Shown here piece by piece: positions 1,322 to 24,468 of a DNA stretch of 64,000 nt; positions within the stretch are counted from its first letter, which is position 1, and every line of letters starts with the position of its first letter. This DNA comes from a virus (taxonomy: Duplodnaviria; Heunggongvirae; Uroviricota; Caudoviricetes). The stretch is taken from positions 68,002 through 132,001 of IMG/VR virus record IMGVR_UViG_3300008108_000037; one strand, given 5' to 3'. The translations under genes and the position numbers were made by a program. Below the pieces are notes generated by a model, which worked only from the letters and a program-made list of their open reading frames with translations, was not told the origin of the DNA and searched no databases.

Positions 1322-1863
1322 CAGATCATTGTTTTATTTTTTTCTTGTCTTGTTGTTAATTTAATTGTTACATCGGATATCTCGATAGTATGATCTAGCT
1401 CTATAATAAAGTTTAAAATTTTAAACAAATCCTCGAATTTGAGTTTATTAAAATTCGCACCAAACATTTTATTATTCTCCATTGTACTTGGGTTAAAATT
1501 AATAACTCTAACTTTTTTATACGGATTGGCAATATTTAATGTCTGTGATAAATTTATTAGGTGTTTTTTATTTGAGACATATAGAGGACTAAAACATCCG
1601 TCCTCGTGTACTGCGGACGTTCCAAAATTTATTATTGTTTTTTCTAAATCCTTCCATTTTTCGAATAGTTCAAAAAAAACCAAGGATTGCTTCACATCTT
1701 TACTATATGCATGATTTAAAAATACATCGCATGAAGCTACCTGCGATAATATAGTGTCAATTTCTTCTCTTAGATCTATTTTAATTATATCGTGGGTCTT
1801 TCCCCACATAAGCGAAGCGTAATTGCCAAAACCGTCTGAAGTACCTGATATTGCTATTTTCAT
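1321..1863 (-). CDS. SDR-family NAD(P)-dependent oxidoreductase-like
   Basis: N-terminal IAISGTSDGFG glycine-rich Rossmann motif; downstream YVSNK (YxxxK) catalytic dyad; 180 aa. Confidence 0.4.
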   Translation of the reverse strand: MKIAISGTSDGFGNYASLMWGKTHDIIKIDLREEIDTILSQVASCDVFLNHAYSKDVKQSLVFFELFEKWKDLEKTIINFGTSAVHEDGCFSPLYVSNKKHLINLSQTLNIANPYKKVRVINFNPSTMENNKMFGANFNKLKFEDLFKILNFIIELDHTIEISDVTIKLTTRQEKNKTMI

Positions 1864-2363
1864 ATTAATTTCGAATTTCCTATTTGTAAATCATTCTTAT
1901 TTAAAAATAATATAAGGGACCATCTCTCACCTCCTAATATTTTTTTCACTTCATGGTCCCTATCACTTTTCATTGTATAAATTGTCCCAGTAACTTTAGG
2001 AAGTATTTCTAAAGGATTATATGCAATGAATTCTCCACCATCATAACTTTCATTTAAACAAACACCTATATTTAAAATTTGATCAGGATGCGTTGTCGAA
2101 TCATTATGTTTAGCAAATTCATTACCAGCCAAATAACGATGCAAATATATTTCTTGCATTTCATTTATTTTATTTTTTGAATATTCATCTAAAAGAAATT
2201 CTTTCAGTCGATCAAATATCCACTGGGTGTTACTATTTCTAAGTACAACATGATAATAGTAATTAAAATCATTTCTTTTAAATAATGATGATGAGTGTTT
2301 AGGTTTAAAAGTATTTGATAGATTAATTATCTTATTACATTCTTCTATTGAAAATGAAATCAT
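1860..2363 (-). CDS. 2OG-Fe(II) oxygenase superfamily protein
   Basis: HxD (AKHNDS) ... H (DHEVKK) ... RxS (GERWSLILF) triad arrangement typical of P4H/PhyH-like dioxygenases. Confidence 0.45.
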   Translation of the reverse strand: MISFSIEECNKIINLSNTFKPKHSSSLFKRNDFNYYYHVVLRNSNTQWIFDRLKEFLLDEYSKNKINEMQEIYLHRYLAGNEFAKHNDSTTHPDQILNIGVCLNESYDGGEFIAYNPLEILPKVTGTIYTMKSDRDHEVKKILGGERWSLILFLNKNDLQIGNSKLI

Positions 2364-2851
2364 ATTAATTTTTTTTTATTCATTATGTCGGTTCTTAATC
2401 GTTCAGAACTATTCTCGTCAAATAGATCTTCATAATATTGAATTGGTATTTTTAATTTATCAGACAATTCCTGTAAATCTTGACCCATTTTTATTAAAAG
2501 TTCTCTTGATTTATCAATCGTTTCTACTGGTGGTGCGACATATTCATATGGGGTTCCGGAATGATACCCATTTCGAATATTGTGATAAAGGTAAGAGTAT
2601 GATTCGAGATGATTTTTAAAATTTTTTCGATTTAATAATATCACATCATCAAATTTTTTTGATAATTCAAAATTATTCTCGTGCTGATGTATTATTGTTT
2701 TAACAACAACGTTATTCATATCATCGTCATATAAAAAACGATCACTACCGTCAAACGGCTCAAAGATTGCTCTAAATTCTCTTTCTTTCGAAATTTTATG
2801 TAATAAAGATGTAGATCCCGTTCTGGGTAATGATATTATTAAAATTCTCAT
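2360..2851 (-). CDS. sulfotransferase-domain protein
   Basis: N-terminal ISLPRTGSTSL resembles the PAPS 5'-phosphosulfate-binding loop (P-K/R-T/S-G-S/T-T) of sulfotransferases; 163 aa; same array as APS kinase. Confidence 0.45.
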   Translation of the reverse strand: MRILIISLPRTGSTSLLHKISKEREFRAIFEPFDGSDRFLYDDDMNNVVVKTIIHQHENNFELSKKFDDVILLNRKNFKNHLESYSYLYHNIRNGYHSGTPYEYVAPPVETIDKSRELLIKMGQDLQELSDKLKIPIQYYEDLFDENSSERLRTDIMNKKKLI

Positions 2852-3390
2852 ATTAATCTTTTATTGTCATATAATTTAAGATATTTAAAATCTGTATTAG
2901 TCATCCAAACATTTAAAGCGCATCTAACCCCAGTCGTGACAGGCATAACCCCATGGTATATTTTACTTCCATCAAAAGATATGGACTGTCCTATTTTTAA
3001 CAAATGTTTTTGTGAATCGTTTATGTTTTTTGATTTTGATAATATAAATCTCCCATCTTCAAAATTTTCGCTTAAAACTATTACTGTAGTTAGCTGTGAG
3101 GTTGAATCCAAGTGTAAATCTAATCTTCTACTATCGTAATATTTGGTAATACTTATATTAAAATCTTCAATTTTAAAATCTTTAAAATTAAACCACAATT
3201 TAAATTTTTCTTCTTCAAAATTTTTTATGAACCTGTCAAATATCAATTTATTAAATCCTAAATCGGAAATTCTTTTACAATCCCAAACCTCGGATGGATT
3301 ATAATTAAATTTTTTACCCACCCTATCTGCATATTCAATAATTGAATTACATTCCTCACCTCCAAAGAAATTGTTTATCGAATAGTTCAT
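2848..3390 (-). CDS. 2OG-Fe(II) oxygenase (P4H-like)
   Basis: LHLDST (HxD), IYHGV (second His), GVRCALNVW (Arg for 2OG C5 carboxylate). Confidence 0.45.
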   Translation of the reverse strand: MNYSINNFFGGEECNSIIEYADRVGKKFNYNPSEVWDCKRISDLGFNKLIFDRFIKNFEEEKFKLWFNFKDFKIEDFNISITKYYDSRRLDLHLDSTSQLTTVIVLSENFEDGRFILSKSKNINDSQKHLLKIGQSISFDGSKIYHGVMPVTTGVRCALNVWMTNTDFKYLKLYDNKRLI

Positions 3391-6946: not shown

Positions 6947-7656
6947 GAATTTATATGATTTTTGAAGACGATCCTTCTATTTGTTTCCCTAATAGAATTA
7001 AAATCATAATTAATATTCGTTGTGTATACTATTCTATCAGATTCTGAACCTAATGTAAGGGTTGGCATATGTTGTAAATCACCAGGAAAAAATAGAATAT
7101 CGCTTTCTTTTGGAGTGAATGAATGTAATTTTTCGTCTTCTGTTTTAAAAATAAGATCCCCTTCTCCATCTTTAAGATCCGAAGGAATTTGTATATAAAA
7201 AACATAGGTCCATTGCGTTTTCAAATTTGTTCTATTCGATGATTCTATCCAGTCATGGGTGTGCATCCATTCCATTTTAAAACCCGGAACTTGTATGTAT
7301 ATCCAACTGGATTTTATAAATCTGTCTATTTTGCAAGACAATTTTTTCCTTAAAAAATCCAATGCCTGATTATCTACAGATCTAAATTCATCGCATCCAA
7401 TATGGACGTCCAATGAATTTTGTACCCTGTATGTCTCGTTTTGGTATAAGGATTCGTTTTGATATATTCTAGTTAAAAATTCTTTTTTCGAAAACTGATT
7501 ATCGTACCTTGTCTTGTAGATTGTGTATTTTTCTGACAGCTTATATTGTTCTGAAAAGTTTATTTTTTTCATATTTCCCATATTTAGTAAACAGTTCATT
7601 TCCACGATATATTTTTTTCGTGGCAATCGATAAATTTCTATCAATATTCGGTTCAC
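6943..7656 (-). CDS. hypothetical protein, possible cupin/2OG-oxygenase-like (true start probably an internal Met near 7572-7581)
   Basis: MHTHDW and DLQHMPT His-containing blocks; the 5' end overlaps the downstream-array gene 7541-7975 by ~115 nt unless an internal Met is used. Confidence 0.25.
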   Translation of the reverse strand: MNRILIEIYRLPRKKYIVEMNCLLNMGNMKKINFSEQYKLSEKYTIYKTRYDNQFSKKEFLTRIYQNESLYQNETYRVQNSLDVHIGCDEFRSVDNQALDFLRKKLSCKIDRFIKSSWIYIQVPGFKMEWMHTHDWIESSNRTNLKTQWTYVFYIQIPSDLKDGEGDLIFKTEDEKLHSFTPKESDILFFPGDLQHMPTLTLGSESDRIVYTTNINYDFNSIRETNRRIVFKNHINS

Positions 7657-7975
7657 TATCCCAAGAACAGCTGTTTACCCAGTGCATGGGTGTTTTAAAT
7701 ATCCAATGACAATTTTTTTCTAGATTGACATTAAACGTCCATTCGTCACCAATCTTAGAAAATTCGTACATATCATAAACATGGATCTTAACGTTATAAT
7801 CAAGGGAATTTAATTCTGATTCAGTTAATTGGTAAATCCCTGAATCCCCCTTCCAGTTAACGAATATTTCTTCCCCCTCATCGATATCTCTAAGAGCAAA
7901 AATACCTACTCCGTGTATATTGCTCGGCGACATTTTAACGTTCACATGATTTTTGATGTATTCATATGCAGTCAT
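7541..7975 (-). CDS. SET-domain protein (putative protein lysine methyltransferase), paralog A
   Basis: N-terminal HGVGIFALRDIDEGEEI (SET N-region G-x-G...GE-I), central WVNSCSWDSEPN (NHSCxPN-like pseudoknot), C-terminal RGNELFTKYG (GEEL..Y). Confidence 0.4.
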   Translation of the reverse strand: MTAYEYIKNHVNVKMSPSNIHGVGIFALRDIDEGEEIFVNWKGDSGIYQLTESELNSLDYNVKIHVYDMYEFSKIGDEWTFNVNLEKNCHWIFKTPMHWVNSCSWDSEPNIDRNLSIATKKIYRGNELFTKYGKYEKNKLFRTI

Positions 7976-8448
7976 TATATGAAATTTTTTGGTGTGGTTC
8001 TGAATTGAGATCCATAGTTTCCTAATATCTCTTCACCTTCTTTTATCTTTCTAATTGCAACAGGTGCCACATTATTATTGCTATCCACGTTACAGTTTTT
8101 CAATCCACTGTTCATAAACATTTTTGGCCAAATGTATATCCAGTGATAACCTCGCTCTAAGGGGAAAAATATTTTTCCATATTCCTTAGGTATGATTTGT
8201 TCGACCCCATTTTTATCAACAAACCACATTTTATTGTCAAAGGTTTCGTATAAATTTTTTTGGAGCTTATCAGGGAGTGTGAATAATTCTTCCTGTGTAA
8301 TTGAATATATCCCACTCTCCCCATGCCAAAGATCAAAAACAGATTCACCTGCTTCAATATCTCTAATGGCAAAAAATCCAACGCCCTCTACAGAACTCGG
8401 CTTAAGTATTGCTGTGACCTTTTGCTGAAGATATTCTAAAGGAGTCAT
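7975..8448 (-). CDS. SET-domain protein, paralog B
   Basis: EGVGFFAIRDIEAGESV, MNSGLKNCNVD, KEGEEILGNYG; tandem duplicate of 7541-7975 with a 1-nt stop/start overlap. Confidence 0.4.
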   Translation of the reverse strand: MTPLEYLQQKVTAILKPSSVEGVGFFAIRDIEAGESVFDLWHGESGIYSITQEELFTLPDKLQKNLYETFDNKMWFVDKNGVEQIIPKEYGKIFFPLERGYHWIYIWPKMFMNSGLKNCNVDSNNNVAPVAIRKIKEGEEILGNYGSQFRTTPKNFI

Positions 8449-8612
8449 AAATATCCACAGAATTTAAGAATGTTTTAACTTAATCAGTTCTACAAGTTTT
8501 GACAATATAGTGAAGGTTTTCTGTTTTTTATCCTCGCTGATCGATGAAGCTTGTCTTAATTTAAGATCAACAGTATTAATTGACTTATATTTTGTTGGTT
8601 TTATCATGATCT

Positions 8613-10487
8613 TTATATTTTTGGTATTCCTCTGTTATGTGCTAAAATTCCATTAGCAAAAAAGTTATGATTATTTTTAATATCCTGTAAATTATAAACT
8701 AGAGTGGTTTCTTCTATCATGTTTATGTTCACAATTTTTGAGCTCCCCTTTAATAACTTTAAACAGTCTCCAATCTCTATCTTACCGATTTTAGATTCTA
8801 TAGTATACAGTTTATTAGATAGATTATTATCGAATGAAGACCATCCTTTATCTTCAACATATACTGGGTGATCTATGGTACATTTTAAAAATTCACCATT
8901 CTCTAATTCATACTCAACAATTCGGTCCACTTTTTTACTATAAACAGCATTTACTGTATTGGCCTCAATATTATTTGATAGCATGTTAAGTGTCAGTACA
9001 GAATCACCAGCAATAATATCCTCTATATTTTTTGTAACACCTTCCGAGATGGTTATTTTCGTGCCTGCAACGAAACATGGTGCATTGTGTGTTACGAATG
9101 AATTGACAGGAGTTGATCCTGCTATTATGTAGGTGTCAGTATCCTCAACATCAATTTCAACTAAGCTGAAATTGTTTTCATTAATTATTAATATTTCAGA
9201 ATTTGTGACCTGCGCTAATGATCCATCATAATCTACTAAGTAATCTGTCGTTGTTTTTATGTTTACAGATTGTTTCCATACGATCGAGTCCATTCCCTCG
9301 TCATAAACTAAGAAAGATTTATGAACCGACGTATAAATTGAATCCTCGTTATTATTTACTGTTATATTAGATAATGTTTTATTCAACAATTCTTTACTAT
9401 TTTTATATATAACAGTAGATGTCGTTAGATTAGATTCCGGTGGTAAGGTGTTTCCTGATATTTGCCAAGTTGGATATGTGAAGTCGTCTTCCGTTAAATC
9501 TGTTCCCCCTATATAATAAGATTTTATTTCTTCCCCGACAGAAATGTTCCCTATTTCTACCTCAGTATCATCAGATTTAATTATTAAATGCGTGTTTAAA
9601 ATGCCATCAATTATACCATCATATTTAATAAAATTTGTTGCAAACTCGTAATAATGTTTATTGTCTATCTTATTAATGTATTGGGCTTCATTATAAATTG
9701 ATTCGACAGGTAATTCAAATGCCGCACTTTCCTGAAATTGTCCTACGTGAATTAGGGACAGATCACCTCCGTAAATAATCGAGAAAGTTCTCACTGTGGA
9801 AACTTTATTATCTGAAACGGTTTGTGAACTTATGTGATATTTTTGTATTACGTTATTTTCTGTTGCCTTTTCGCTGATGAATACTCCCCATCGGCTTTGG
9901 TCTGTATCTTCAGTGGATTCGCTGCCTATTTTATAAAAATCTATAAGGGAATGTTCCGCATCGCTTATGTTTTTTATTAAGCAATCTGGCAAATTTCCCG
10001 AATTAAAATCCCTAGAAATCGTATCGTATTGTCCGAGTGAGGATGAATGATAAAACTCCGCAACGCTATCCTGCTCATTATAATCACAGAATAGCCTAAG
10101 TGTGTTTAATGTTCCCTTAGCATACTCGCTATCAAAAATGGCTGATTCGTCATACGCCATTCTCAGAACGAATAAGTCTGAAGCATCCTCAACAGGAGTC
10201 GGGTATATTCTGTTTGATTGCTCTTTTATCTCCTTAAATTCTGTGATAAATGGAGCGTTCGATGTCAATGATTCGGAAAGTTTATCGACTATATACTGAT
10301 GTATGTTCGGCTTATGTACTACCGTTACTCTTGTGATGTTATTGCTCTCTAAAACCGAGATAAGGTCGTTAAAATCCAGATAGACTAAATTATTAGTCGA
10401 AATAGTTGTGTCTGTATTTACTTCCAATAGTCTTAAATTGCCAACGCTATCCTCAATAAAATCCGCGGAAAAAAAGGTTCCTTTCAT
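8613..10487 (-). CDS. protein with C-terminal Hint (Hedgehog/intein-like) autoprocessing domain
   Basis: C-terminal ~150 aa: CFVAGTKITI (Hint block A nucleophile Cys), CTIDHPVYV (TxxH block B), VYNLQDIKNNHNFFANGILAHN then RGIPKI-stop (block G ending HN with no nucleophile following, so not a classical intein); N-terminal 460 aa of unknown function. Confidence 0.55.
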   Translation of the reverse strand: MKGTFFSADFIEDSVGNLRLLEVNTDTTISTNNLVYLDFNDLISVLESNNITRVTVVHKPNIHQYIVDKLSESLTSNAPFITEFKEIKEQSNRIYPTPVEDASDLFVLRMAYDESAIFDSEYAKGTLNTLRLFCDYNEQDSVAEFYHSSSLGQYDTISRDFNSGNLPDCLIKNISDAEHSLIDFYKIGSESTEDTDQSRWGVFISEKATENNVIQKYHISSQTVSDNKVSTVRTFSIIYGGDLSLIHVGQFQESAAFELPVESIYNEAQYINKIDNKHYYEFATNFIKYDGIIDGILNTHLIIKSDDTEVEIGNISVGEEIKSYYIGGTDLTEDDFTYPTWQISGNTLPPESNLTTSTVIYKNSKELLNKTLSNITVNNNEDSIYTSVHKSFLVYDEGMDSIVWKQSVNIKTTTDYLVDYDGSLAQVTNSEILIINENNFSLVEIDVEDTDTYIIAGSTPVNSFVTHNAPCFVAGTKITISEGVTKNIEDIIAGDSVLTLNMLSNNIEANTVNAVYSKKVDRIVEYELENGEFLKCTIDHPVYVEDKGWSSFDNNLSNKLYTIESKIGKIEIGDCLKLLKGSSKIVNINMIEETTLVYNLQDIKNNHNFFANGILAHNRGIPKI

Positions 10488-10527
10488 ACTTAATATTTTC
10501 TTTTATATCCCAATATAACAAAATGCA

Positions 10528-10737
10528 TCACTTTTTTAGACCATATTTTATATATCTATACCATACCCTCTCGTGTAAAAAATATAAGGCCATCTTGGTT
10601 ATCACCTCAAAGCCGCCAATGGCGATTCCTATTTTTATATTACCTGTTATGGCCCAGCTTAAAATAATCGTATCTAATGTTCCGACTATTCTCCATGTTA
10701 TAGTTTTAGCTATGTGTCTCTTTACCTGAGGCATCAA
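10528..10737 (-). CDS. DUF2061-like small membrane protein
   Basis: 69 aa, KRHIAKTITWRIVGTLDT...AIGGFEVITKMALYFLHERVW; this family is recalled as frequently adjacent to APS kinase genes. Confidence 0.3.
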   Translation of the reverse strand: MMPQVKRHIAKTITWRIVGTLDTIILSWAITGNIKIGIAIGGFEVITKMALYFLHERVWYRYIKYGLKK

Positions 10738-11077
10738 TTGTTCCCTCCCTTATTTTGGTACCGCTTATTAGCGCAATATTTTCTGGGGGCTCGTGGTAAA
10801 TAACCTCATAACCTACCCCTCTCCCATAATTGATTGATTCAATGTCGGGAATTATCGAAAGAAGTATTCTGTCAGAATTTTTAACAAAAAACGATTCTTT
10901 GGAAAGATCTTCCAAAATTTGTTGTGCTTTTTTTGGATTATTGGCATCTTGATCTACGTCCCTGATAGCGACCCAAATGTTTTTTCCCTTCTCTAACTGT
11001 TGATTAATAAGCCATTCGTGTCCTTTGTGCCAGTTCTGCCATCTACCTATATAGAGAGCATATTTTTTACCTTCCAT
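10706..11077 (-). CDS. HxGH-motif nucleotidyltransferase (cytidylyl/adenylyltransferase superfamily)
   Basis: YIGRWQNWHKGHEWLI = (H/T)xGH signature; C-terminal ISGTKIREG = ISxTxIR motif of the cytidylyltransferase family; 123 aa. Confidence 0.5.
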   Translation of the reverse strand: MEGKKYALYIGRWQNWHKGHEWLINQQLEKGKNIWVAIRDVDQDANNPKKAQQILEDLSKESFFVKNSDRILLSIIPDIESINYGRGVGYEVIYHEPPENIALISGTKIREGTIDASGKETHS

Positions 11078-11083
11078 TAATAT

Positions 11084-11512
11084 TTATACGCGCAGAAGGA
11101 GACAAAGTTCCACGAAAGATCTTTCTATGCTGGATCCGTTTCGAAAAATTAAAAAGTTTTCCTCAGGACCTTCAAAATTTTTAACGTGTAACTTTTCCTT
11201 CCCTCCGTAATCGTTCCTGGAAAATAAAACCTCTACAACATCGTTATTTTGCTTTAGATCTTCCCTTATAGCACGATAAGGACAAACCATACTTATCACC
11301 ACGTTATGTCCTTTAACCGACATAAAACGAGCTATAGTGAAGGACCTTTCTATGTTCTTGATCCTGCCAGAATAAGAATAGTCAGTATTGGGGAATATTT
11401 CCCTCAGATCATCGCCATCTATCCATACAGTTCCCATTCCTAATCTTCTAACTAAGAGCTCTGCCATTGTAGTTTTACCCGATCCTGGCTGTCCTATTAA
11501 TAGGTATATCAT
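11084..11512 (-). CDS. cysC: adenylylsulfate (APS) kinase
   Basis: P-loop LIGQPGSGKTT, IDGDDLRE (APS kinase LDGDNxR-like block), ISMVCPYRAIREDL (CysC SPYxxxR-like block); 142 aa. Confidence 0.6.
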   Translation of the reverse strand: MIYLLIGQPGSGKTTMAELLVRRLGMGTVWIDGDDLREIFPNTDYSYSGRIKNIERSFTIARFMSVKGHNVVISMVCPYRAIREDLKQNNDVVEVLFSRNDYGGKEKLHVKNFEGPEENFLIFRNGSSIERSFVELCLLLRV

Positions 11513-11674
11513 AGTAAAGTAATATCTAGTGGTTATAAATAAATGGGTCTCTTTTTCTTAGTTCCTCCAGTTTTTTCTTAAATCTTTTTTTCCTTTTATA
11601 GTTGTCTATACTTTTCTTTATCCAACTGAAAAGAATCAATCCCCTTAAGAACACAAAGAATTTTCTAAAGTGCT

Positions 11675-12022
11675 TCATTTATAATTATTTTTAAATTCCT
11701 CTAATCCCATGGCTTTATCGTCGATTAGGTAGTCATAATGCAATTTTCCCATTATCAGTCCATGGTGATTTATTCCCCATTCTTTTAAACTATCCAGGGT
11801 AAGAACATAAAGACTGTTATAAACCTTAACCAGATCTCCATTGAACTGTCCCATTCCCCTAGCAGTGTAAATGTAAATGGTGTGACCCTCATCATAAAGT
11901 TTATTCGATTTATCAATCATGTGCTTTATGGGTACACAATGTTTATATTTATCTGGGCCAAGGTGTTCCAGATTTTTATCCCGGGTACATAATGTATCGT
12001 CTAAATCAAATGCGTAAATCAT
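11675..12022 (-). CDS. HAD-superfamily phosphatase-like protein
   Basis: IYAFDLDDTLC = HAD motif I DxDxT. Confidence 0.45.
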   Translation of the reverse strand: MIYAFDLDDTLCTRDKNLEHLGPDKYKHCVPIKHMIDKSNKLYDEGHTIYIYTARGMGQFNGDLVKVYNSLYVLTLDSLKEWGINHHGLIMGKLHYDYLIDDKAMGLEEFKNNYK

Positions 12023-12123
12023 AGCGTTAGTTCTTTTAATATGTATTCTGATAATATAATATGGAATATCTCACCATAATGAAGATCTTCAACTTTTCCT
12101 TGGTGTCTCCAAAGACCCAAAGA

Positions 12124-13083
12124 TTATTGGACATAACTGAGCAGTCTTATTAATCTTTGCTTTATGTTATTTTTAATCGTTTCATCCATAGAATAATCCA
12201 TTTTAATAATATTATTTAATTTTTGATAGTTATAGTGACCGCAAACCATTATTAATTTTCTTTTATTCGAAAAATCAAAATTCAGATCTACCCACTTTTC
12301 CCATTTTTTAGAATCGTAGCATACCTCGTAAAACATGTCTATCTGATCCTTTTCCATAAAATCTATTATCGTTTCCGTTTCAATTTGTGCTATTTCTGGC
12401 CCAATATTCAAACTATTCAATCCTCTTTTAAATCTTACAACAATATCCGGCCAATCAAGATAATCGCCATTATGTTCCTTTGATTTCTTTCCATATGATT
12501 TGCATATTCCGATCATAGATTCTAAATCTTCTATATTGAATTTTCCTATATTTTTTTTATTAGCTATATCTAAACCCACCCCCGATTGAATACACACATA
12601 TTCTATTTTTTCAAATTCATCCCCGGTTAGACCAATTTGTAATTCTCTCAAAAAAAAATCCAGATCTTCAGTGGTAATTTTTTTGATTGCCTCTTCTGTC
12701 CCAACTTCAAATAAGATGTTTGAATTTAATTTGTGAATGAATTTAATGTTTTCGATTGTTTCTTTTGTCCCAGATTCGATATCTTGGTATTTTTTCCATG
12801 GATCTATGTGTACGATATCAAGATACTTGGAGTCATTAAAATAAGATTCATATTCGTCAGTGTCTCCTTGCCCTATTCCCCCATGATCCCTTTCTATTAT
12901 TATTTCGGATCTTTCTTTGACATAATTCTTGAATGCTTCGGTTGTCCAATTATTAACATATCCTCCATTAAATTCTATCTGTCTTCTGCTTGGCAATAAT
13001 CCTATCTTTTTAGAGCCCAATTCTATGACTGCATCCACTATGTTTTTAGACATTGGACATATGAAATAATTTATTTCAGACAT
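12124..13083 (-). CDS. GatZ/KbaZ-like (tagatose-bisphosphate aldolase accessory/tagatose-6-P kinase family) protein
   Basis: N-terminal YFICPMSKNIVDAVIE and IIERDHGGIGQG resemble GatZ ICSxxSAHP...GGDHLGP blocks; assignment from memory only. Confidence 0.25.
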   Translation of the reverse strand: MSEINYFICPMSKNIVDAVIELGSKKIGLLPSRRQIEFNGGYVNNWTTEAFKNYVKERSEIIIERDHGGIGQGDTDEYESYFNDSKYLDIVHIDPWKKYQDIESGTKETIENIKFIHKLNSNILFEVGTEEAIKKITTEDLDFFLRELQIGLTGDEFEKIEYVCIQSGVGLDIANKKNIGKFNIEDLESMIGICKSYGKKSKEHNGDYLDWPDIVVRFKRGLNSLNIGPEIAQIETETIIDFMEKDQIDMFYEVCYDSKKWEKWVDLNFDFSNKRKLIMVCGHYNYQKLNNIIKMDYSMDETIKNNIKQRLIRLLSYVQ

Positions 13084-13732
13084 ATTCTATTCCCGTGTAT
13101 ATTTTAAACTGTTCGATAGCTTGATATCTTGACATTAATTTTCCGCTTTCGAATTCTGTTCTTGCTTCGATAATCCGACCGTTTGTGCAAACGTCCACTG
13201 GAGTTGCATTAAAAATCCACCCATCCAAACTTTCAATTTTGCTCCAGTTTTTCCTTTCTATTATTTCATACTCTATTCCCCGAATTCTACACACATATTG
13301 GACTGCTAGACTAAAACCTCCATTTCCCAGTATGGCTATTTTTTTAACTTCCCTTGGTAAATATTTATCTATGCCAATCCAGTCTGTGTTGTAACCGAGT
13401 AATTTGTTATCAACTATTTTAACAGTATTACACGAACCAATATCTGCGACGGAAGAATCACACCAATCTAAATAATCTAATATTTGCACTTTATACGGCA
13501 TGCTAATTGCAAATCCACCAAATTTTAAGTTCTTAGCGGATTCTACCGATAATTCTATATCGTCGCTATAAAATGATTTATAAATTGCATCAACTGAATA
13601 CTTCTGAAAAGCACTATTGAAAAAATGACATCCATTATTTCCTGGGTTCTTTGAAAAAGATCCGAATATCTTAGTATCCTTGTTTATCAACACCTGCGAC
13701 ATTTTATAGTGATAATAATATATTTTCAGCAA
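13076..13732 (-). CDS. shikimate/quinate dehydrogenase-family oxidoreductase
   Basis: GGFAISMPYK, NTVKI, GYNTDWIG (AroE substrate-domain motifs) followed by IAILGNGGFSLA (NAD(P) Rossmann). Confidence 0.5.
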   Translation of the reverse strand: MLKIYYYHYKMSQVLINKDTKIFGSFSKNPGNNGCHFFNSAFQKYSVDAIYKSFYSDDIELSVESAKNLKFGGFAISMPYKVQILDYLDWCDSSVADIGSCNTVKIVDNKLLGYNTDWIGIDKYLPREVKKIAILGNGGFSLAVQYVCRIRGIEYEIIERKNWSKIESLDGWIFNATPVDVCTNGRIIEARTEFESGKLMSRYQAIEQFKIYTGIEYV

Positions 13733-14489
13733 TTATATACTGTCCAGTTTCGTTTGGGTGATGATCGTTAACTAATTCTTCCCAAAATTTTGTATCATAA
13801 TTTTTATATCTGTCAGAATATCTTAAGCATTCATTTGATGTAAACCTCTGAGCGTCGATATTAAATTCATCATCATCTAGCGGAAAGTAAATAATTCTGC
13901 TTGGATGAGTAATTGTTTTAATGACATTTTCTTTCCTTTTTTGCGTGGAATTTACATCTTTAGGATGTATAGGGTTTAAAAACCAATATTTAACTGTCGC
14001 ACCTATTTTATTTTCCAAATAATCAAAAACAGGAAGTACGTTTTTAAATCCAAGAATTAATAATTCAATTCTAAAATCTAAAACGAAATCTACGTATTTT
14101 TTCATTTTTTCTTCATCATAAAATTTTTCACTCCTGAAATAATCAATCTGATGCCAATCAAAATCTATCAATACGTCATTTATTTCAAATATGTCTTTAC
14201 TAGACCACGATTCTCTTACGTGGTTTTCGTTAACAAAAGGTACAGGGAACCTATCTGGGTATGTAAACTCGAAAACCACTAAATCCCCCTTCTTTATTTT
14301 TTCCATCTGCCTGAACAGCTTTACCGTAGATTCAAAATTGGATTGACCACTAAACCCGTTATTTACAAAATTGAATCCAATTTTTTCGGCTAATATTTCT
14401 GGCCAAAATTTCAAGCCGTATTCTTTTTCGTGATGTGGAGAATGAGTCCAACTACATCCGTAAGCCCATAGTGTGTTTTTTGTAATCAT
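13704..14489 (-). CDS. SGNH hydrolase-like protein (divergent paralog)
   Basis: N-terminal TLWAYGCSWTHSP aligns with the FG(D/C)S(F/W)T block of the other six paralogs (Asp replaced by Cys, as in 17095-17754). Confidence 0.35.
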   Translation of the reverse strand: MITKNTLWAYGCSWTHSPHHEKEYGLKFWPEILAEKIGFNFVNNGFSGQSNFESTVKLFRQMEKIKKGDLVVFEFTYPDRFPVPFVNENHVRESWSSKDIFEINDVLIDFDWHQIDYFRSEKFYDEEKMKKYVDFVLDFRIELLILGFKNVLPVFDYLENKIGATVKYWFLNPIHPKDVNSTQKRKENVIKTITHPSRIIYFPLDDDEFNIDAQRFTSNECLRYSDRYKNYDTKFWEELVNDHHPNETGQYIIAENILLSL

Positions 14490-16383
14490 CTAGAATTTCT
14501 ATAGATTTGAACCATAACATTTTACCAAATTTTCCATCGTGTAATGGAGACATATTTAGAAATATCAGGCCTGTTATAAATTTAATCTTATCGAGATCGA
14601 ATCCGTTTTTCCTGATCCATCCCTCATATTCAGATCTAAACTTAATTAGATTCTTTGAGATATGATATTCATATTTAATAGAATAAGATCCTTCAAAGTA
14701 TGTGATATTACTGTCATCTTTCATTAAATTGTATGGGATTATTAATCCGCCATAAAACTTAGAAAGATCGTAATAAATGTCTCCAGATTCTACATTTTCT
14801 CCAAAGCAGTCTCTCCAGTCTATGTAATAGTATTCGCCATCTTCCGATAATATCATATTATCAAAGTGGAGATCACCATGAAAATTAGAATAGAAAGGAT
14901 TCTCGTAAAGACAGTCAAATATTTTTTCATCAGATAATATAAGATCCAAAGATGGTCTTTTAATTTCGTTTATTTCATGATCAGAAACAAAATAACTTTC
15001 TCCATATTTAGCAAGAAATGATTCTAGTCTTTTATGGGTTTTGTCGACATAAAACTTTTTAAGATCTTCTATGTTTGCAGGGATTGTCTCCTTGGTGAGG
15101 AATTCCAGCTTTGTCAAAAACCTACTAAAATCCCCCAGTTCCCCGCGATCGTATAAAGTTTTACCTTCTATCCAATCGTAATAAAGAAAATTCCCAGCAA
15201 CATTGAAATTTGGGGGAACCAAGCCTCTTAAAATTTCTCCTCTAATTTTCCTTCTTTCTAGCAGATCTCTATCTTGTGTAAACTTTAAAAATTTACCCCC
15301 GTCCTTATAGGTTATTTCTCCTATGTCTTTTTTCAAAGATAGCGGTTTATCATTAAAGTACTGTCTAGCTTTATCTAGATCGTCTAGATTTCCGGTATCT
15401 AGCCATTTTAACTTTTTTGCCTTTAGACTTGTATAGACTTGAGGTGATTCAAATGCAGAAACTAATTCACCGCTTTTAATATTTTCTTTAAGCTCTTTCC
15501 AGAAAGTGGAGTAATCTGATATTCCTCCGAAACCAACAAATGCTAGATCGTATCCGTCAGTACTTTTGTTAACGAAAGATGTTATATTTTCTTTATCGTC
15601 CATCTTCACCGTGGAGTATTTTTCTGGATATGATGTTGAATGAACCCCTAACCAGTTACCGTTTATTCCAGGGATCGGAGAATCTATGATACAATCTCCC
15701 ATTATAAAATAAAAAGGTCTTTGAAGATGCTCGGAGCACAACAGAGCGCTTGTACCTGGCCCAGTTTGCGAAGGATCATAATTCTCGACATTTACGAATG
15801 TAAATTTGTGATCTGGATAAACTAGATTACAATACTCTTTGACGGAATCTCCCTTGTATCCAATAGCTATGATAAAGTCATATTCCTTAGGGAATTTTTC
15901 TATTATGTAGGATATGATAGCCCGATTGTTTACCGGCAATAAAGTTTTATTTATGTTGTCTGTTAATTTTTTTAGACGGCTACCTAAGCCTGCACATAAT
16001 ATTAAAACCGCGGGAGTTTTATGCTCGCTTTCGATCTTTCCATCAGGTCTATTTGTATCATCCTCCACTCGTATTACATCGTCGACCTCCGGGGTAGAAA
16101 CTTCTTGCATTATCAGGTCGGTCAAAGCAATTACCCTGTGTTTTTTAGGAGGAATTACGTTATAGTATTGACCTGGGCCGTACACCTCCTTAACAATTTC
16201 ACCTTGATCATTCTCCAGCCAAATTTCTGCTTGTCCCGATATGATATAGTTAGTTTCTTTTTTAAAGTTGTGATACTGTAAAGATGTTTTATATCCCTCG
16301 TTTATATAGATTCTTTTATAACAATAAGAATCATTAAGTTCTATCCATTCTTCTTTACCCCACGGTTTATAAATTGTTTTCAT
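14452..16383 (-). CDS. tri-domain nucleotide-sugar activation enzyme: cupin + sugar-phosphate nucleotidyltransferase + APH/choline-kinase-like kinase
   Basis: N-terminal KPWGKEEW...SLQYHNFKKETNYIISGQA (mannose-6-P isomerase type II cupin); LILCAGLGSRLKKLTDNINKTLLPV (AGGxGTRLxPLT...KPLLPV nucleotidyltransferase signature); C-terminal HGDLHFDNMI and YYIDWRDC (Brenner HGDxxxxN kinase motif and DxD). Confidence 0.55.
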   Translation of the reverse strand: MKTIYKPWGKEEWIELNDSYCYKRIYINEGYKTSLQYHNFKKETNYIISGQAEIWLENDQGEIVKEVYGPGQYYNVIPPKKHRVIALTDLIMQEVSTPEVDDVIRVEDDTNRPDGKIESEHKTPAVLILCAGLGSRLKKLTDNINKTLLPVNNRAIISYIIEKFPKEYDFIIAIGYKGDSVKEYCNLVYPDHKFTFVNVENYDPSQTGPGTSALLCSEHLQRPFYFIMGDCIIDSPIPGINGNWLGVHSTSYPEKYSTVKMDDKENITSFVNKSTDGYDLAFVGFGGISDYSTFWKELKENIKSGELVSAFESPQVYTSLKAKKLKWLDTGNLDDLDKARQYFNDKPLSLKKDIGEITYKDGGKFLKFTQDRDLLERRKIRGEILRGLVPPNFNVAGNFLYYDWIEGKTLYDRGELGDFSRFLTKLEFLTKETIPANIEDLKKFYVDKTHKRLESFLAKYGESYFVSDHEINEIKRPSLDLILSDEKIFDCLYENPFYSNFHGDLHFDNMILSEDGEYYYIDWRDCFGENVESGDIYYDLSKFYGGLIIPYNLMKDDSNITYFEGSYSIKYEYHISKNLIKFRSEYEGWIRKNGFDLDKIKFITGLIFLNMSPLHDGKFGKMLWFKSIEILDDYKKHTMGLRM

Positions 16384-17098: not shown

Positions 17099-17754
17099 AT
17101 GATTTTTACCTTTGATTTTATTTCATTTTCTATGTATTGGCAAAAATCCCTATGACCCTTGAATGACCAGTGATGGTTTACTATTTCTCCCTTTGTTGCA
17201 TTGACTATTAATTCAAATTTTTCCCAGAGACTTTCTACATCCCAGATATAGCAGAGATTTACTCCTCTATCTTTTAGTAGTCTTTCTCTCAAAAAATTCA
17301 GTCTAAAATCGTGTCTGATAGAATAAGCTTTCTGTGTTGCAAATTCTATTGAAAACATTTTTATGGTCTCTATCTGCTCGTTGGTAAATAATCCAACGGT
17401 TGCATCTTCAAACCATTTTTGTACGTCTTTTTCCCCTCCCCTATAAACTATAGATTTGACTTCCGGTGAATCATTTTCTTTCGGAAAGTCAAATCTGTGT
17501 GACCAGGTTTTACCTATTATTACTATATCGTCCTTAGAAATATCCTCCCAGTTTTTTATTATAGTATCAATAATAGTATCGTTAGACACCCCAGGTAAAC
17601 CTTTATTTTGTAGAGCATAGTTTATTTTTCTGGATAATAATTTATTCCAAGAAAGGTCATCATCTTTTAACCTATATCTTTGATAATATAGATCATGATC
17701 TAATGTGCCGTCTCCGTATGTAAAAGAACATCCAAATGTCCAGATTTTATTCAT
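17095..17754 (-). CDS. SGNH hydrolase-like protein (GCS variant)
   Basis: N-terminal IWTFGCSFTYGDG; paralog family. Confidence 0.4.
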   Translation of the reverse strand: MNKIWTFGCSFTYGDGTLDHDLYYQRYRLKDDDLSWNKLLSRKINYALQNKGLPGVSNDTIIDTIIKNWEDISKDDIVIIGKTWSHRFDFPKENDSPEVKSIVYRGGEKDVQKWFEDATVGLFTNEQIETIKMFSIEFATQKAYSIRHDFRLNFLRERLLKDRGVNLCYIWDVESLWEKFELIVNATKGEIVNHHWSFKGHRDFCQYIENEIKSKVKII

Positions 17755-19532
17755 ATTAATATTTTATCTATGACCTCTGTTTCACCTCCGGGGAACACCG
17801 CTATATCTTCGAACAGAACCTCATTGTCCCCAAGTCCCCCTAATTTTAATTGTTTTTTGAGAGTTATAAAATTCCTAAATTTGCATATCTGAAAATTAAG
17901 AGGGGTAGTTTGATTCTTTACTCCAATCTCTTTTAAATAGTGATAAAAAACTAACTCAGGTATCAGGTGGTTTCTGCTTTCTTCAAACGTTCTAATGTCT
18001 ATACTTGGTAGGTGCCTATAAAAATCGCAAATTTTATCGAACGTTAAAGAATCTGAAAACCAAAACACATCACCAATTGCAAAATGAGGGTAAACATCAA
18101 TTTTTCTATTATGTATAGAAAATATAGTATTTGGTTTAACAGTTGATAAAATTTCGATTAAATCAAAAACCTGTCCCCATGGAACATATTGATCGTACCG
18201 TAATCTGATACAAACATCATATTCGAAATTATTTTCTATCTCGTATTGTCTTTTCAATTCGCACGATCTCATCACTGCATAAAACTGGTTTGCACACCAA
18301 GTAATGGGCGGACCTTCATTTTCTGGATATCTCTCCTCTGCAATGTCAATAACATCCTGGTTTACTCTTTGATTTTTTTCAAAATCCTCAATTAGATATT
18401 TTTTCGGTTTGTATATTTTAATTATTTCATTTAATTTATCATCGTCGTACGGAGTTACTCTATTATTGGCGGTTACATCCAATATTGGTCTGGATTCGCT
18501 TTCAAAATTCCAAGCATGGCAGAAAAAGTCGACAGTGCTATTAGGATCACTTTCAACTTTATTTTTTAGCTTTATTATGTTGTGGTAGCATTTTTCATAA
18601 GTTCTGAATTGACCACTTAAGCAGATAGCAATTTTCATAGTTCTTAATTTTTTTAACACATTGGGTGAAAACCCGGTCTTTTCAAAAATTTCTTTTTTGA
18701 ATTTCAAAAGTAGATTGTATCCGATGTGTTTGACGTTTGATAATTTTTGAAACTCGTGATTATATAATATTCTATTGATTTCAACACACTCCCTAAAATT
18801 ATCCACTGGATGATAACCCAGGGAGAATTCTCTAAAGATTGTCCACTTATACTCCATTTCATTTAGAAACTCTATAGATTCTATATTATTTTCCTTGAGA
18901 TAATCATCAAAAAACACGTGATAAAGATCTTTGCTTTTATCTGTTGTGATAATATAGTTATGAAACAATGAAGCCTTATCCATAACTGAGGAATTTGACA
19001 TAAATACCACATCATGCAGCATTCTGCTTGAAGGATTCTCAAATTCTGTTATTGTGTCGACTAAAAAAATACCATTTTTGATAAAAGAAATGTTGTCGTG
19101 AATTATATTTTTTAATTTAATCGACGGATCATATATGCAATCCATTCTCATTTTTATTACAACGTCGTATTGAAAATTGTTTTCCTCTTCGTATTTCTTT
19201 TTTAAATTAACACTTTCATACCAGCTGTACCACATCGGGGAATTTGATGTCCCCTTTTTTAGAGACAAATCGTAATAGTCCTCGTAAATATCAACCTTAG
19301 TTTTTTTTGGTTTGTATATGTTATTAATTTTTATGTAATCATTTAGTTCTACCTTCTTGATATGGGTATATTCATGTTCGGGTCTTTCGTCCCCAAAAAA
19401 TCTTTTACCGTCATTAATATCCCACGTGTGTATAAAATAGTCGGCCTCACATCCCTCAATAAAATTGAGTATGTTGATGGAAGAATCAACTGCCCTTCTT
19501 ATTTGACCACTAAAGCAAATCGCAATTTTCAT
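17751..19532 (-). CDS. hypothetical protein with internally duplicated ~290-aa domain
   Basis: Two repeats each starting MKIAIC(F/L)SGQ(I/F)R and containing (Y/F)F(I/C)H(T/A)W(D/N); no known family recognised. Confidence 0.3.
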   Translation of the reverse strand: MKIAICFSGQIRRAVDSSINILNFIEGCEADYFIHTWDINDGKRFFGDERPEHEYTHIKKVELNDYIKINNIYKPKKTKVDIYEDYYDLSLKKGTSNSPMWYSWYESVNLKKKYEEENNFQYDVVIKMRMDCIYDPSIKLKNIIHDNISFIKNGIFLVDTITEFENPSSRMLHDVVFMSNSSVMDKASLFHNYIITTDKSKDLYHVFFDDYLKENNIESIEFLNEMEYKWTIFREFSLGYHPVDNFRECVEINRILYNHEFQKLSNVKHIGYNLLLKFKKEIFEKTGFSPNVLKKLRTMKIAICLSGQFRTYEKCYHNIIKLKNKVESDPNSTVDFFCHAWNFESESRPILDVTANNRVTPYDDDKLNEIIKIYKPKKYLIEDFEKNQRVNQDVIDIAEERYPENEGPPITWCANQFYAVMRSCELKRQYEIENNFEYDVCIRLRYDQYVPWGQVFDLIEILSTVKPNTIFSIHNRKIDVYPHFAIGDVFWFSDSLTFDKICDFYRHLPSIDIRTFEESRNHLIPELVFYHYLKEIGVKNQTTPLNFQICKFRNFITLKKQLKLGGLGDNEVLFEDIAVFPGGETEVIDKILI

Positions 19533-20679
19533 ACTCTAATAAATAATCTCCAATGTCTAGATTTCTTATAGAATCCATCATTTTTAAAAAATTGGAAGAT
19601 TTTTTTTCTAAATTCCCATCTTTTTTATTTTCTATCTCGTACATAAATCTATTTCTGTCGCCATCTCCCAATTTGTAGATTTGCTCCATTGCAAGATCCT
19701 TCAGCTTTGGGTGTAAACAAGATATGTGTAAGTAATTGGGGCTATAGACAAAATTATATTCAATTTGTTCACCGGAAAAAAACTCTCTAAAATTCCACAC
19801 ATTACAAACATTCAAAACACTTATTGTCTGGGTTATAGTAATTTGTAATTTTTCTTTTTTCAGTTTTAAAAAATTATCATACACAACTTCCCATTTTGAA
19901 GGATATCTTATATAATCATTCCTATTTCCAACGTCGTCTATAGAAAGCTGTAGTTTTACCTCCCGAAATTCTCTTAACAGCTCTAAAAACCTGTCTGGTA
20001 AATTTGTACAGTTTATGTTATATACCAGCTTTATATTTTTTGATTTGTCTAGAGAAATCAACTTCTCCAAAAAGTAAAAATGCTCCTTTATCAACGTTGG
20101 TTCTCCCCCGTTGATGTAAATTTCCTCCAATTCGCTAGAATGCTTTAATAATTCATCATACCATTCTTTGTTTTTAAACCAATCGCTTTTATAATCTTCA
20201 TAGTTGTAATGATCGTCTCCGAACGTGGACGGAAATCTTTTAACATCTTCTATCCACTTGCTACTTGACATCGGGTTGCATGTTAAACACTTTATGTTAC
20301 AAACATTACCGAGTCTTAATTCGATAAACTTAAGATGTATATTTGGGAGTTTTTCGCTTATACTTATTTTATTGAGATATTTAGCATTTTCTTCATCTCT
20401 TTTACTCTTGAATCCGTTTTCTTCTATCCTGTAACAACCTATACATTCGATAGGTTTCTCATTATTCATCATCTTTCTTCTAATTTCTGTGAAAGAATCA
20501 GAATTCATAATGTCTTCTATGCTATCCTTACCTAGGGTTAATACTCTATTTTTAGTTTTGGAGAAACAAACCCCATTTTCAAAATTAGCAATACAACAAG
20601 GTGACACCAGCCCGTTAGGATGAGTTGCTAAATGCGTAAACGGTAACGAACATATAGTTTTTAAATTTGTGTCCACCAT
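19510..20679 (-). CDS. radical SAM enzyme with N-terminal Cys-rich extension (short subfamily)
   Basis: CSLPFTHLATHPNGLVSPCC and CIGCYRIEE precede LGNVCNIKCLTC (CX3CX2C); IYINGGEPTL (GGEP SAM-binding glycine motif). Confidence 0.6.
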   Translation of the reverse strand: MVDTNLKTICSLPFTHLATHPNGLVSPCCIANFENGVCFSKTKNRVLTLGKDSIEDIMNSDSFTEIRRKMMNNEKPIECIGCYRIEENGFKSKRDEENAKYLNKISISEKLPNIHLKFIELRLGNVCNIKCLTCNPMSSSKWIEDVKRFPSTFGDDHYNYEDYKSDWFKNKEWYDELLKHSSELEEIYINGGEPTLIKEHFYFLEKLISLDKSKNIKLVYNINCTNLPDRFLELLREFREVKLQLSIDDVGNRNDYIRYPSKWEVVYDNFLKLKKEKLQITITQTISVLNVCNVWNFREFFSGEQIEYNFVYSPNYLHISCLHPKLKDLAMEQIYKLGDGDRNRFMYEIENKKDGNLEKKSSNFLKMMDSIRNLDIGDYLLEYENCDLL

Positions 20680-21998: not shown

Positions 21999-22915
21999 AT
22001 TAATCTGCTAGATTTTATTATATTCTGCGTATAGAGATCACCCCTTCCGTTTGAAATCCATTCATACAACAATTCTGCCCATAATTTGTGCGATTTGGGT
22101 GTTGGATGTACACCATATAATCTTTCCTCCAACGGTATCTGTTTTATATAATTTAAAAATGAATTTGATGGCTTGTCTTTCATCAGAAAATTGGATTCTG
22201 GTACATGGTCCCATTTTAATTTACTCATACGGTATAGATCCTCCCCCCAAATACCTTCAACATATTTGAAAGAATCTATCCATTTCATAATATTTAAGTC
22301 TATAAATTTTCTTTCCATTTTATAGATATGATGTTCCTCAGGTAAAGCATTGAACAAATAACATGGAATTCCGTACTTATCGCAAAACGTACGTATTTCA
22401 AAATTGTAGTTTATGAAATCGTACGCTCCTTCATAGTCATTTTGAACAACCGATAAATACCACTTAAAGAATTCCCTCATTCCATATTCCTCTTTATTGA
22501 AATCTCCGTTACTGTTTAGAGTTTTTCGGTATATTTTATTATGAGTATTGAAAAAAAATTCCTTTCTAACTATAGAGGTCCATCCAATGACTACAATGAT
22601 GTCATCTGGAGTTTTATTAGGGACAATGTAGTTTTCAAGTAGCCAGTTTAAAAGTGTTTCAAAAATCCATTTGTTACCTACTGCAGGCTTGGCTAAATTT
22701 ATAACCTCTTTTGCCCCTATTAATTCTTTTAAATATGTTGGCCAAATTCTTTCAATCCTATATTGATCGTTTTTTGCGTCAGTATCTTCTTCTATTATCC
22801 CGTTAAATTTATTTATTTGGTGAGGCTTTGATGGAGCTTCCAAAAACTGTGGGTCCACAATTTCACTACCATATGTAAAGCTATCTCCGCACACAACTAA
22901 TTTCATTTCACTCAT
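21995..22915 (-). CDS. SGNH/GDSL-family hydrolase-like protein
   Basis: N-terminal KLVVCGDSFTYGSE. Confidence 0.5.
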   Translation of the reverse strand: MSEMKLVVCGDSFTYGSEIVDPQFLEAPSKPHQINKFNGIIEEDTDAKNDQYRIERIWPTYLKELIGAKEVINLAKPAVGNKWIFETLLNWLLENYIVPNKTPDDIIVVIGWTSIVRKEFFFNTHNKIYRKTLNSNGDFNKEEYGMREFFKWYLSVVQNDYEGAYDFINYNFEIRTFCDKYGIPCYLFNALPEEHHIYKMERKFIDLNIMKWIDSFKYVEGIWGEDLYRMSKLKWDHVPESNFLMKDKPSNSFLNYIKQIPLEERLYGVHPTPKSHKLWAELLYEWISNGRGDLYTQNIIKSSRLI

Positions 22916-24467: not shown

Positions 24468-24468
24468 G

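Follow-up and report, generated by a model that had tools for sequence, protein, structure and literature searches.

How does a phage that carries a homologue of adenosine 5′-phosphosulfate (APS) kinase come by the APS on which such an enzyme would act? The question is raised by a 64,000-nucleotide stretch of the IMG/VR record IMGVR_UViG_3300008108_000037 (positions 68,002–132,001; Caudoviricetes), hereafter the window, in which three adjoining minus-strand genes encode an APS-kinase-like protein of 142 aa (11084–11512; Pfam APS_kinase), an HxGH nucleotidyltransferase of 123 aa (NTase; 10706–11077, with WHKGH and ISGTKIR motifs) and a small DUF2061 membrane protein of 68 aa (10528–10734; Pfam PF09834). 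An earlier reading of this DNA (the original prediction) had described these three open reading frames (ORFs) at the same positions, which we confirm, and had proposed that they supply 3′-phosphoadenosine 5′-phosphosulfate (PAPS) to a phage sulfotransferase, with APS coming either from the NTase or from the host. Between these two sources the evidence favours the NTase, given its adjacency to APS kinases, its fusions to them and its place in a Nitrospiraceae operon.

The kinase, NTase and DUF2061 genes form one tightly packed, operon-like unit that is putatively co-transcribed. Only 6 nt separate the kinase stop from the NTase start, while the DUF2061 start (a probable ATG at 10734, within an ORF spanning 10528–10737) is preceded by the Shine-Dalgarno-like AGGGAGGGA and overlaps the 3′ end of the NTase gene by 29 nt in a different frame. 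Promoter and terminator scans gave results at chance level. The conserved C-terminal tail of the NTase (...GKETHS) coincides with this out-of-frame overlap (10706–10734), and part of its conservation across relatives may reflect dual coding with the DUF2061 start. Public gene calls on near-identical contigs annotate a 68-aa ORF on the opposite strand (10523–10729, plus strand) and miss the DUF2061 gene; the minus-strand reading is correct because it is backed by the Pfam match and by gene calls on more distant contigs. The order kinase–NTase–DUF2061 was found again in contigs whose kinases are only 45–70% identical, among viral loci from IMG/VR and in cellular genomes, so the arrangement is not a matter of chance. 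Hundreds of IMG/VR contigs bear the same module, and in a set of 80 viral loci the kinase was present in 47 and DUF2061 in 63, adjoining the NTase in 63.

The family assignment of the kinase is well supported, although its match to Pfam APS_kinase (PF01583; E 3.9e-11, 43.7 bits against a cutoff of 21.1) covers only profile positions 6–97 of 152 and its scores fall under every cutoff of the NCBIfam APS-kinase models (53.6 vs 127). The idea that it might fit another P-loop family better, which would have undercut the original prediction, found no support, as the best 20 PDB sequence matches are all APS kinases or kinase domains of PAPS synthases (best 7yq0, E 3.7e-8) and other P-loop families appear only from E ~0.01. 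When aligned with E. coli CysC (from NC_000913.3) and 17 relatives, the phage protein shares with CysC the GxxGxGKT and DGD motifs, R37, Y45/S46, R50, N53, S74-x-x-x-P78, R83 and E114..P116. Ten of these residues (G7, G12, K13, D32, G33, D34, R37, R50, P78 and R83) are invariant over the 21 sequences counted and three more (S46, N53 and S74) nearly so, while position 45 is aromatic (Y, vs F in CysC). We take the retained residues to be the Mg/catalytic and APS-binding positions of published APS-kinase structures. The protein is thus classified as a short-lid APS-kinase homologue, predicted to phosphorylate the 3′-OH of APS to yield PAPS.

A canonical source of APS was not visible in the original prediction, and the wider survey bears this out: the Sat motifs QxRNPxHxxH and GRD[HP]AG are present in no ORF of the window or of ~170 loci, and CysD/CysN homologues are likewise missing from both, save for a weak 24% CysD match to Nitrospiraceae CysH genes. 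The case for the NTase comes from its genomic company. A cellular scan with one genome per GTDB species returned 263 NTase relatives, for which the best 80 loci were analysed, including Marinimicrobia, Bacteroidota, Nitrospiraceae, Poseidoniales and others. In 69–70 of these 80 loci an APS kinase lies directly upstream of the NTase on the same strand. Nine ORFs fuse the two proteins outright, those of the Xylella phages Salvo and Bacata and of seven bacterial loci (five with long-lid CysC), always with the kinase first, which is the order of animal PAPS synthase. In several Bacteroidota loci (L069 at 7552–7950, and also L072–L074 and L078) a second, 132-aa CTP_transf_like gene, a tandem paralogue, stands between a canonical cysC and the NTase.

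The four Nitrospiraceae loci are informative in a different way, since all of them carry, in this order, a sulfite reductase (NIR_SIR plus TusA), CysH (PAPS_reduct) and the NTase as the last gene of the operon, with the kinase absent. The Nitrospiraceae CysH bears ECC...CxxC cysteines, and CC...CxxC cysteines mark Fe–S APS reductases; with a CysH of the APS-reductase type, APS is the expected product of the step missing from the operon, that is, sulfate to APS. Sulfotransferase genes are also frequent neighbours, as they are in nodH–nodPQ loci: a Sulfotransfer_5 gene (Pfam E 4e-48) lies within a few kb of the kinase–NTase pair in 22 loci, mostly of Marinimicrobia, and in 11 loci of Chitinophagaceae, all of them among the DUF2061–kinase fusion loci described below, the NTase is directly followed by a Sulfotransfer_3-like gene. 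Polysaccharide-synthesis genes are found near the cellular pairs as well. Gene order, fusions and the empty slot in the Nitrospiraceae operon together indicate that the NTase most likely makes APS, and make it a candidate for a non-orthologous, very small ATP sulfurylase (ATP + sulfate → APS + pyrophosphate (PPi)).

The third member of the unit was linked to sulfate activation in the original prediction, and this link is real. The DUF2061 protein of the window matches PF09834 over profile positions 1–51 of 52 (E 7.4e-23, 81.2 bits against a cutoff of 23.1). Among 79 cellular loci, DUF2061 is present in 17 and adjoins the NTase in all 17. Thirteen Chitinophagaceae species encode it as the N-terminal part of a fusion with a full-length APS kinase, with the NTase next in each; the fusion in locus L060 (7303–8001), for example, matches both APS_kinase (E 3e-47) and DUF2061 (E 3e-13), and lies in the order Asp/Arg hydroxylase gene, DUF2061–kinase fusion, NTase, Sulfotransfer_3 gene. 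An Asp/Arg hydroxylase gene lies ~1.3 kb upstream in 11 of the Chitinophagaceae fusion loci, as viewed directly for L060. On a Mesorhizobium symbiosis plasmid, a DUF2061 homologue with 48.5% identity to that of the window sits between the sulfotransferase gene nodH and cysD/cysN (nodPQ), and the nod-locus gene set including DUF2061 has been described in three northern Mesorhizobium strains and three other Astragalinae microsymbionts (preprint 10.1101/2022.04.26.489235). The family is not exclusively sulfate-linked, because other DUF2061 genes sit in unrelated contexts. The 120 matches listed in a homologue search carry no other Pfam domain and are mostly ~70 aa long, with a few of 100–119 aa that are possibly tandem copies. 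DUF2061 would be best read as a membrane anchor, organiser or partner of the sulfate-activating enzymes, a role that is less certain than any other part of the model.

If PAPS is made, a consumer should be encoded, and the presumed one is a sulfotransferase-like (ST-like) protein of 163 aa (2360–2851, minus strand), recognised by its motifs and by hhalign. It has no Pfam or NCBIfam match at E < 0.1, falling under every Pfam threshold, including those of the Stf0/NodH-related Sulfotransfer_3 and _5 families, and it is short in comparison with Stf0 (239 residues) and SULT chains (282–293). An exhaustive HMMER search returned 265 cluster representatives. Among 59 aligned relatives, 15 match Sulfotransfer_3, 10 Sulfotransfer_4, 5 Sulfotransfer_1 and 2 Stf0, all weakly (best 1.8e-5). 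A protein lacking the PAPS-binding loops would have told against the original prediction, yet the loops are present: the 5′-phosphosulfate-binding loop (5′-PSB) reads P9-R10-T-G12-S-T (PRTGST) and the 3′-phosphate-binding motif (3′-PB) R75...S84, with G12 and R75 invariant among the 59 relatives and R10 and S84 kept in at least 90%. E31-P32 is also invariant or nearly so, the glutamate being a candidate catalytic residue. In hhalign, the family profile aligned with a Marinimicrobia Sulfotransfer_5 family at 95.4% probability, over the N-terminal 95 columns only, pairing these loops with the GPRNIST and R...S of Sulfotransfer_5. P-loop kinases are nearly as close in fold, and the Walker A lysine is absent from the ST-like protein. 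These features place it, as far as motifs and profiles can, in a divergent sulfotransferase-like family.

The ST-like gene is flanked on both sides by oxygenase-like genes. A 2-oxoglutarate (2OG)-Fe(II) oxygenase-like gene (1860–2363, minus strand; Pfam 2OG-FeII_Oxy_3 E 1.1e-7) overlaps the ST-like stop with its start by 4 nt, and a second 2OG-oxygenase-like gene (2848–3390, minus strand) lies directly upstream, again with a 4-nt overlap. The product of the latter has no Pfam match itself and is 57% identical to one in locus L006 (17890–18435) that bears PF13640, where the pairing recurs, as that gene overlaps an ST-like gene at 18432–19085. Given this translational coupling of the ST-like gene to its 2OG-oxygenase-like neighbours, the encoded enzymes probably act by hydroxylating a substrate and then O-sulfating it. 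ST-like homologues occur in the same arrays of loci L005 and L006–L007, and 23 of the 80 viral loci have an ST-like gene no more than 10 kb from the NTase.

Taken together, we consider it likely that the window encodes a self-sufficient phage pathway from sulfate through APS to PAPS, which would feed a hydroxylation-coupled sulfation. The NTase, an ATP-sulfurylase-like enzyme that would have evolved from a fold resembling nicotinamide mononucleotide (NMN) adenylyltransferase (NMNAT), would adenylylate sulfate (ATP + sulfate → APS + PPi), and the short-lid kinase would at once turn APS into PAPS, pulling the unfavourable first step forward. The DUF2061 protein would hold or organise the two enzymes at the membrane. 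The ST-like protein would then spend PAPS, probably on a hydroxyl put in by the coupled 2OG oxygenases, and the acceptor of the O-sulfation may be a glycan, a protein or a small molecule. Gene structure, the kinase and DUF2061 families, the ST-like motifs and fold, and the comparative-genomic linkage are directly supported; what we infer is the specificity of the NTase for sulfate, the function of DUF2061 and the nature of the acceptor. The proposed two-step chemistry is that of the animal enzymes PAPSS1/2 (N-terminal APS kinase and C-terminal ATP sulfurylase) and of CysDN–CysC/NodPQ, and the tightly coupled activities of PAPSS1/2 follow the kinase-then-adenylyltransferase order of the nine fused ORFs.

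Several observations weigh against this pathway, and one set of them concerns the NTase itself. By Foldseek and by family profile its closest relatives are archaeal/NadM NMNATs (E ~1e-5), followed by phosphopantetheine adenylyltransferase (PPAT) and NadR, while the sole ATP sulfurylase among the top 50 Foldseek matches is that of soybean (4maf, rank 44) and none is found among PDB profile matches at E ≤ 10. The canonical Sat sulfate-binding motifs are absent from it, and its AlphaFold (AF2) model (predicted local distance difference test score (pLDDT) 75.8) is poor at residues 85–105, exactly around an invariant YGRGVGY loop. In the Salvo-like phages, moreover, the fused kinase–NTase gene adjoins MazG and NADAR/COG3236-type genes rather than sulfur genes. 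Salvo gp24 (L001, 1381–2076), annotated as a cysteine dioxygenase, lies 3.5 kb upstream of this fused gene and is a possible sulfur link.

Homology alone would make the NTase a truncated NMNAT-like adenylyltransferase. With the archaeal/NadM enzymes (PDB 1f9a, 1ej2/4yp7, 2qjo) it shares a HUP-class Rossmann-like fold, an NP after strand 2, a PDI(E) strand and the motifs GRWQNWHKGH and ISGTKIR, which match the GRFQPxHxGH and C-terminal ISGTxIR of NadM-type proteins (GRxQxxHxGH and ISxTxIR in general form). These matches, the Salvo neighbourhood and the public names given to the family ('PPAT' (JGI) or 'NMNAT', besides 'cytidyltransferase-like' and 'hypothetical') are what can be said for a rival explanation, in which the kinase alone serves sulfur metabolism with APS from the host ATP sulfurylase, and the NTase is an NMN adenylyltransferase, of the NAD-salvage type known from other large phages, or another adenylyltransferase that just happens to adjoin the kinase. 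This explanation leaves the near-universal adjacency or fusion to APS kinase across phyla, the Sir–CysH–NTase operon and the sulfotransferase neighbours unaccounted for, in a genomic context that is one of sulfur activation and not of NAD metabolism. The likeness is also partial: scores against the NCBIfam NadM/archaeal NMNAT models are weak (21–22 bits against cutoffs of 127–409), that against Pfam CTP_transf_like is under its cutoff (14.5 vs 21 bits), and the NTase profile aligns to NMNAT only through position 79, the remainder being ~50 residues shorter and carrying a family-specific invariant motif, YGR(G/D)VGY. We regard this explanation as quite improbable. For the question left by the original prediction, whether the protein groups with minimal sulfate adenylyltransferases or with cytidylyltransferases, the answer is a divided one, the nearest family being archaeal/NadM NMNAT and the ATP-sulfurylase role being assigned by context.

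The proposed ATP sulfurylase would differ from both known families. Sat is ~400 aa long and CysD works with the GTPase CysN, whereas the NTase is a free-standing protein of 112–135 aa (up to ~165 aa with terminal extensions) that lacks QxRNPxHxxH, GRDHAG and a GTPase partner and is closer to NMNAT than to Sat. As it has neither the Sat motifs nor CysD/CysN homology, it lies outside both families, and the claim is that it works like a member of them. The family is large and strongly conserved, with more than 4791 homologues at 90% clustering, the top 120 all 73–100% identical, and a mean column identity of 77% in a 24-sequence sample. A role as HldC in ADP-heptose synthesis was considered and rejected: HldC is among the fold matches and an HldA-like kinase lies near the NTase in 11 Marinimicrobia loci, but this adjacency is on variable strands and in one clade only, and the motifs are NMNAT-like, not HldC-like.

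A further set of opposing observations concerns the kinase, which lacks ~14 residues of the CysC lid (KGLYKKARAGELRNFTG); where CysC has its mobile lid (KGLYxxAR...FTG), the phage kinase family carries G(K/R)E..H. In the cellular loci, however, a short-lid kinase replaces canonical CysC ahead of the NTase in ~50 cases, which argues that the shortened lid still works, and a canonical long-lid CysC, 49–59% identical to E. coli CysC, occupies the position in ~20. Short and long forms alternate in one slot and are therefore interchangeable there. The altered lid is nevertheless one of the points in favour of a second rival, in which the pair makes another 3′-phosphorylated nucleotide donor, by the logic of Campylobacter O-methyl phosphoramidate synthesis (MeOPN; Cj1416/Cj1415) or of a CoA-synthase-like PPAT with a 3′-kinase, and the 'sulfotransferase' transfers that group. 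APS-kinase homologues can phosphorylate other NDP-X compounds, and PPAT is the name given to the NTase by JGI. In Campylobacter, Cj1415–Cj1418 combine the cytidylyltransferase and the APS-kinase-like 3′-kinase with a glutamine kinase and a gamma-glutamyl-phosphoramidate hydrolase. Such a donor is hard to reconcile with the finding that a canonical CysC, as much as 59% identical to that of E. coli, can take the slot of the short kinase, or with APS reductase and sulfite reductase as operon partners in Nitrospiraceae. Cj1416 is of another nucleotidyltransferase fold (LicC/RmlA-like), and among the ~40 Pfam-scanned ORFs of the surrounding array (1–32 kb), compared by domain, neither pyruvate phosphate dikinase (PPDK)/phosphoenolpyruvate-utiliser, glutamine-kinase-like, nor class-I amidotransferase domains were seen. 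The Cj1415/Cj1416-type phosphoramidate pathway was consequently rejected, its enzymes being missing from an array whose conserved partners elsewhere are canonical CysC, APS reductase and sulfite reductase, and a donor other than PAPS is, in our view, highly improbable.

The remaining difficulties lie in the linkage between unit and consumer. The original prediction placed the sulfotransferase in the same operon, which is too strong: although they share a strand and the interval shows no terminator-like site on the minus strand, the triad is separated from the ST-like gene downstream by 7.7 kb and more than 15 genes. Where a viral locus has an ST-like gene, a kinase is missing within 10 kb in about half of the cases, and 33 of the 80 viral loci (~40%) have the NTase without a phage kinase. 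A second type of viral synteny (L090–L140) is kinase-less and comprises hsp20, a ~375-aa membrane protein, a UvdE-like gene, NTase, DUF2061, peptide deformylase and a carbamoyltransferase.

These loci bear on a third rival, which accepts the same chemistry and differs on purpose only, namely that the unit activates sulfate to boost assimilatory reduction in the host (cysteine and methionine supply) as an auxiliary metabolic gene (AMG) set, and not for a phage sulfotransferase. Many viral loci have NTase and DUF2061 without a kinase or an ST-like gene, the Nitrospiraceae homologues sit in an assimilatory operon, and viral cysC has already been listed as an assimilatory-sulfate AMG, not validated (Kieft et al., as listed in PMC12713726; large phages in PMC13172472). 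In those reports a phage APS kinase homologue is likewise read as sulfur metabolism, but as a stand-alone gene, whereas here it is part of a kinase–NTase–DUF2061 unit with an ST-like gene in the array. The ST-like genes in the arrays of the window, L005 and L006–L007 and in the 23 viral loci mentioned above speak against assimilation as the purpose, as does the fact that kinase-bearing cellular homologues are mostly found beside sulfotransferase and polysaccharide genes. An exclusively assimilatory purpose is therefore unlikely, although it may fit the 33 kinase-less viral loci and both purposes can coexist.

The co-directional minus-strand array spans position 1 to ~32.4 kb and, besides the genes discussed so far, encodes GT7-like glycosyltransferases with LamG domains, several radical SAM/SPASM proteins, GDSL-like esterases, SET-like proteins, a methyltransferase and a cupin/NTP-transferase/APH-kinase protein. 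We read this array as a modification factory that presumably builds the molecule to be sulfated. The last-named protein (14452–16383, minus strand; 643 aa) has a cupin/mannose-6-phosphate-isomerase-like end together with an NTP_transferase domain and a weakly matching kinase domain of the APH type, and may be a sugar-1-kinase/nucleotidyltransferase for the glycan of the array. The stretch 17751–26501 (minus strand) encodes four radical SAM proteins, of which two carry a SPASM domain in an unusual N-terminal position, and also holds DUF6071 and DUF7796-like genes. Contigs related to the window also encode Trp-halogenase-like and carbamoyltransferase genes, and this combination hints at a peptide or small-molecule product rather than a glycan alone. 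Two SET-domain-like proteins are encoded in tandem within the array (7541–8448, minus strand), with weak Pfam SET matches on public contigs.

Directly downstream of the DUF2061 gene lies a gene for a 624-aa protein (8613–10487, minus strand) whose N-terminal ~460 aa have no Pfam match and are conserved in the same position in 22 viral loci. The copy in this window is the only one with a Hint/intein-like domain at its end (C471...HN, then just RGIPKI), which looks like a C-terminal autoprocessing domain of the bacterial intein-like (BIL) type rather than an inserted intein. On the other side, a 50-aa ORF (11526–11678) and a 115-aa haloacid dehalogenase (HAD) phosphatase (11675–12022), both on the minus strand, stand tight against the kinase and are probably not part of the module core. 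The only match to the 50-aa ORF is a weak one, immediately upstream of the L005 kinase. The HAD protein matches TIGR01689 (capsule biosynthesis phosphatase) under its cutoff (E 4.5e-7) and PNK3P weakly. It was considered as a 3′-phosphoadenosine 5′-phosphate (PAP) phosphatase partner and rejected, since it is not kept with the module, a homologue being present in 1 viral and 2 cellular loci.

Beyond the array, the window continues as a plus-strand block with a collagen-like tail-fibre gene, an endolysin-like gene, an HNH endonuclease, a tmRNA and 21 tRNAs; capsid and terminase genes were not found within the window. The tail-fibre gene (46154–50857, plus strand; 1567 aa) matches PHROG tail-fibre families with E down to 1e-110 and accounts for a local rise in GC to 45–49% in a window that is otherwise AT-rich (~31% GC). 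The tmRNA (Rfam 79.5 bits, tag ...GADYAIAA) and the tRNA genes lie at 36809–37191 and 38855–61151, respectively, on the plus strand, the tRNA genes being clustered with small ORFs interspersed. A UDP-galactopyranose mutase homologue (61186–62274, plus strand) has ~50% identity to glf of Streptococcus suis phages. No close cultured relative of the phage was found, as megablast of positions 8000–16000 against cultured phages returned zero matches and the only tblastn matches of the kinase and NTase were in Salvo-like siphophages and in a single huge phage, itself uncultured. Metagenomic contigs nearly identical to the window are as long as 219 kb, and a large uncultured phage is therefore a reasonable origin for this DNA.

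Sulfotransferases and the pathways to PAPS are described in textbooks, and the ATP sulfurylases recognised so far are, to our knowledge, of two kinds only, the homo-oligomeric Sat and the GTP-coupled CysDN. What appears to be new is the conserved kinase–NTase–DUF2061 unit and the proposal of the NTase as a third kind. We found nothing in the literature on an NMNAT-like or cytidylyltransferase-like ATP sulfurylase, in a search of partial coverage that leaves room for an earlier description, and no database name calling the NTase an ATP sulfurylase. With somewhat better than even confidence, we propose that the 112–135-aa, NMNAT-derived proteins defined by GRxQxxHxGH, PDI and YGR(G/D)VGY constitute a third, minimal class of ATP sulfurylase in Marinimicrobia, Bacteroidota, Nitrospiraceae, marine archaea and thousands of aquatic phages, with DUF2061 as a membrane partner, and that large phages thereby carry a complete, host-independent PAPS factory for their own products. 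If so, genomes and phages scored as lacking ATP sulfurylase may have one, which would change how sulfate assimilation and sulfation are read from genomes. It would also give DUF2061 its first functional context, provide a very small enzyme for the production of APS and PAPS in vitro and turn many reports of 'viral cysC' into a testable pathway. It would further suggest that abundant aquatic phages sulfate their virion, the host envelope or a secondary metabolite by means of hydroxylase–sulfotransferase pairs.

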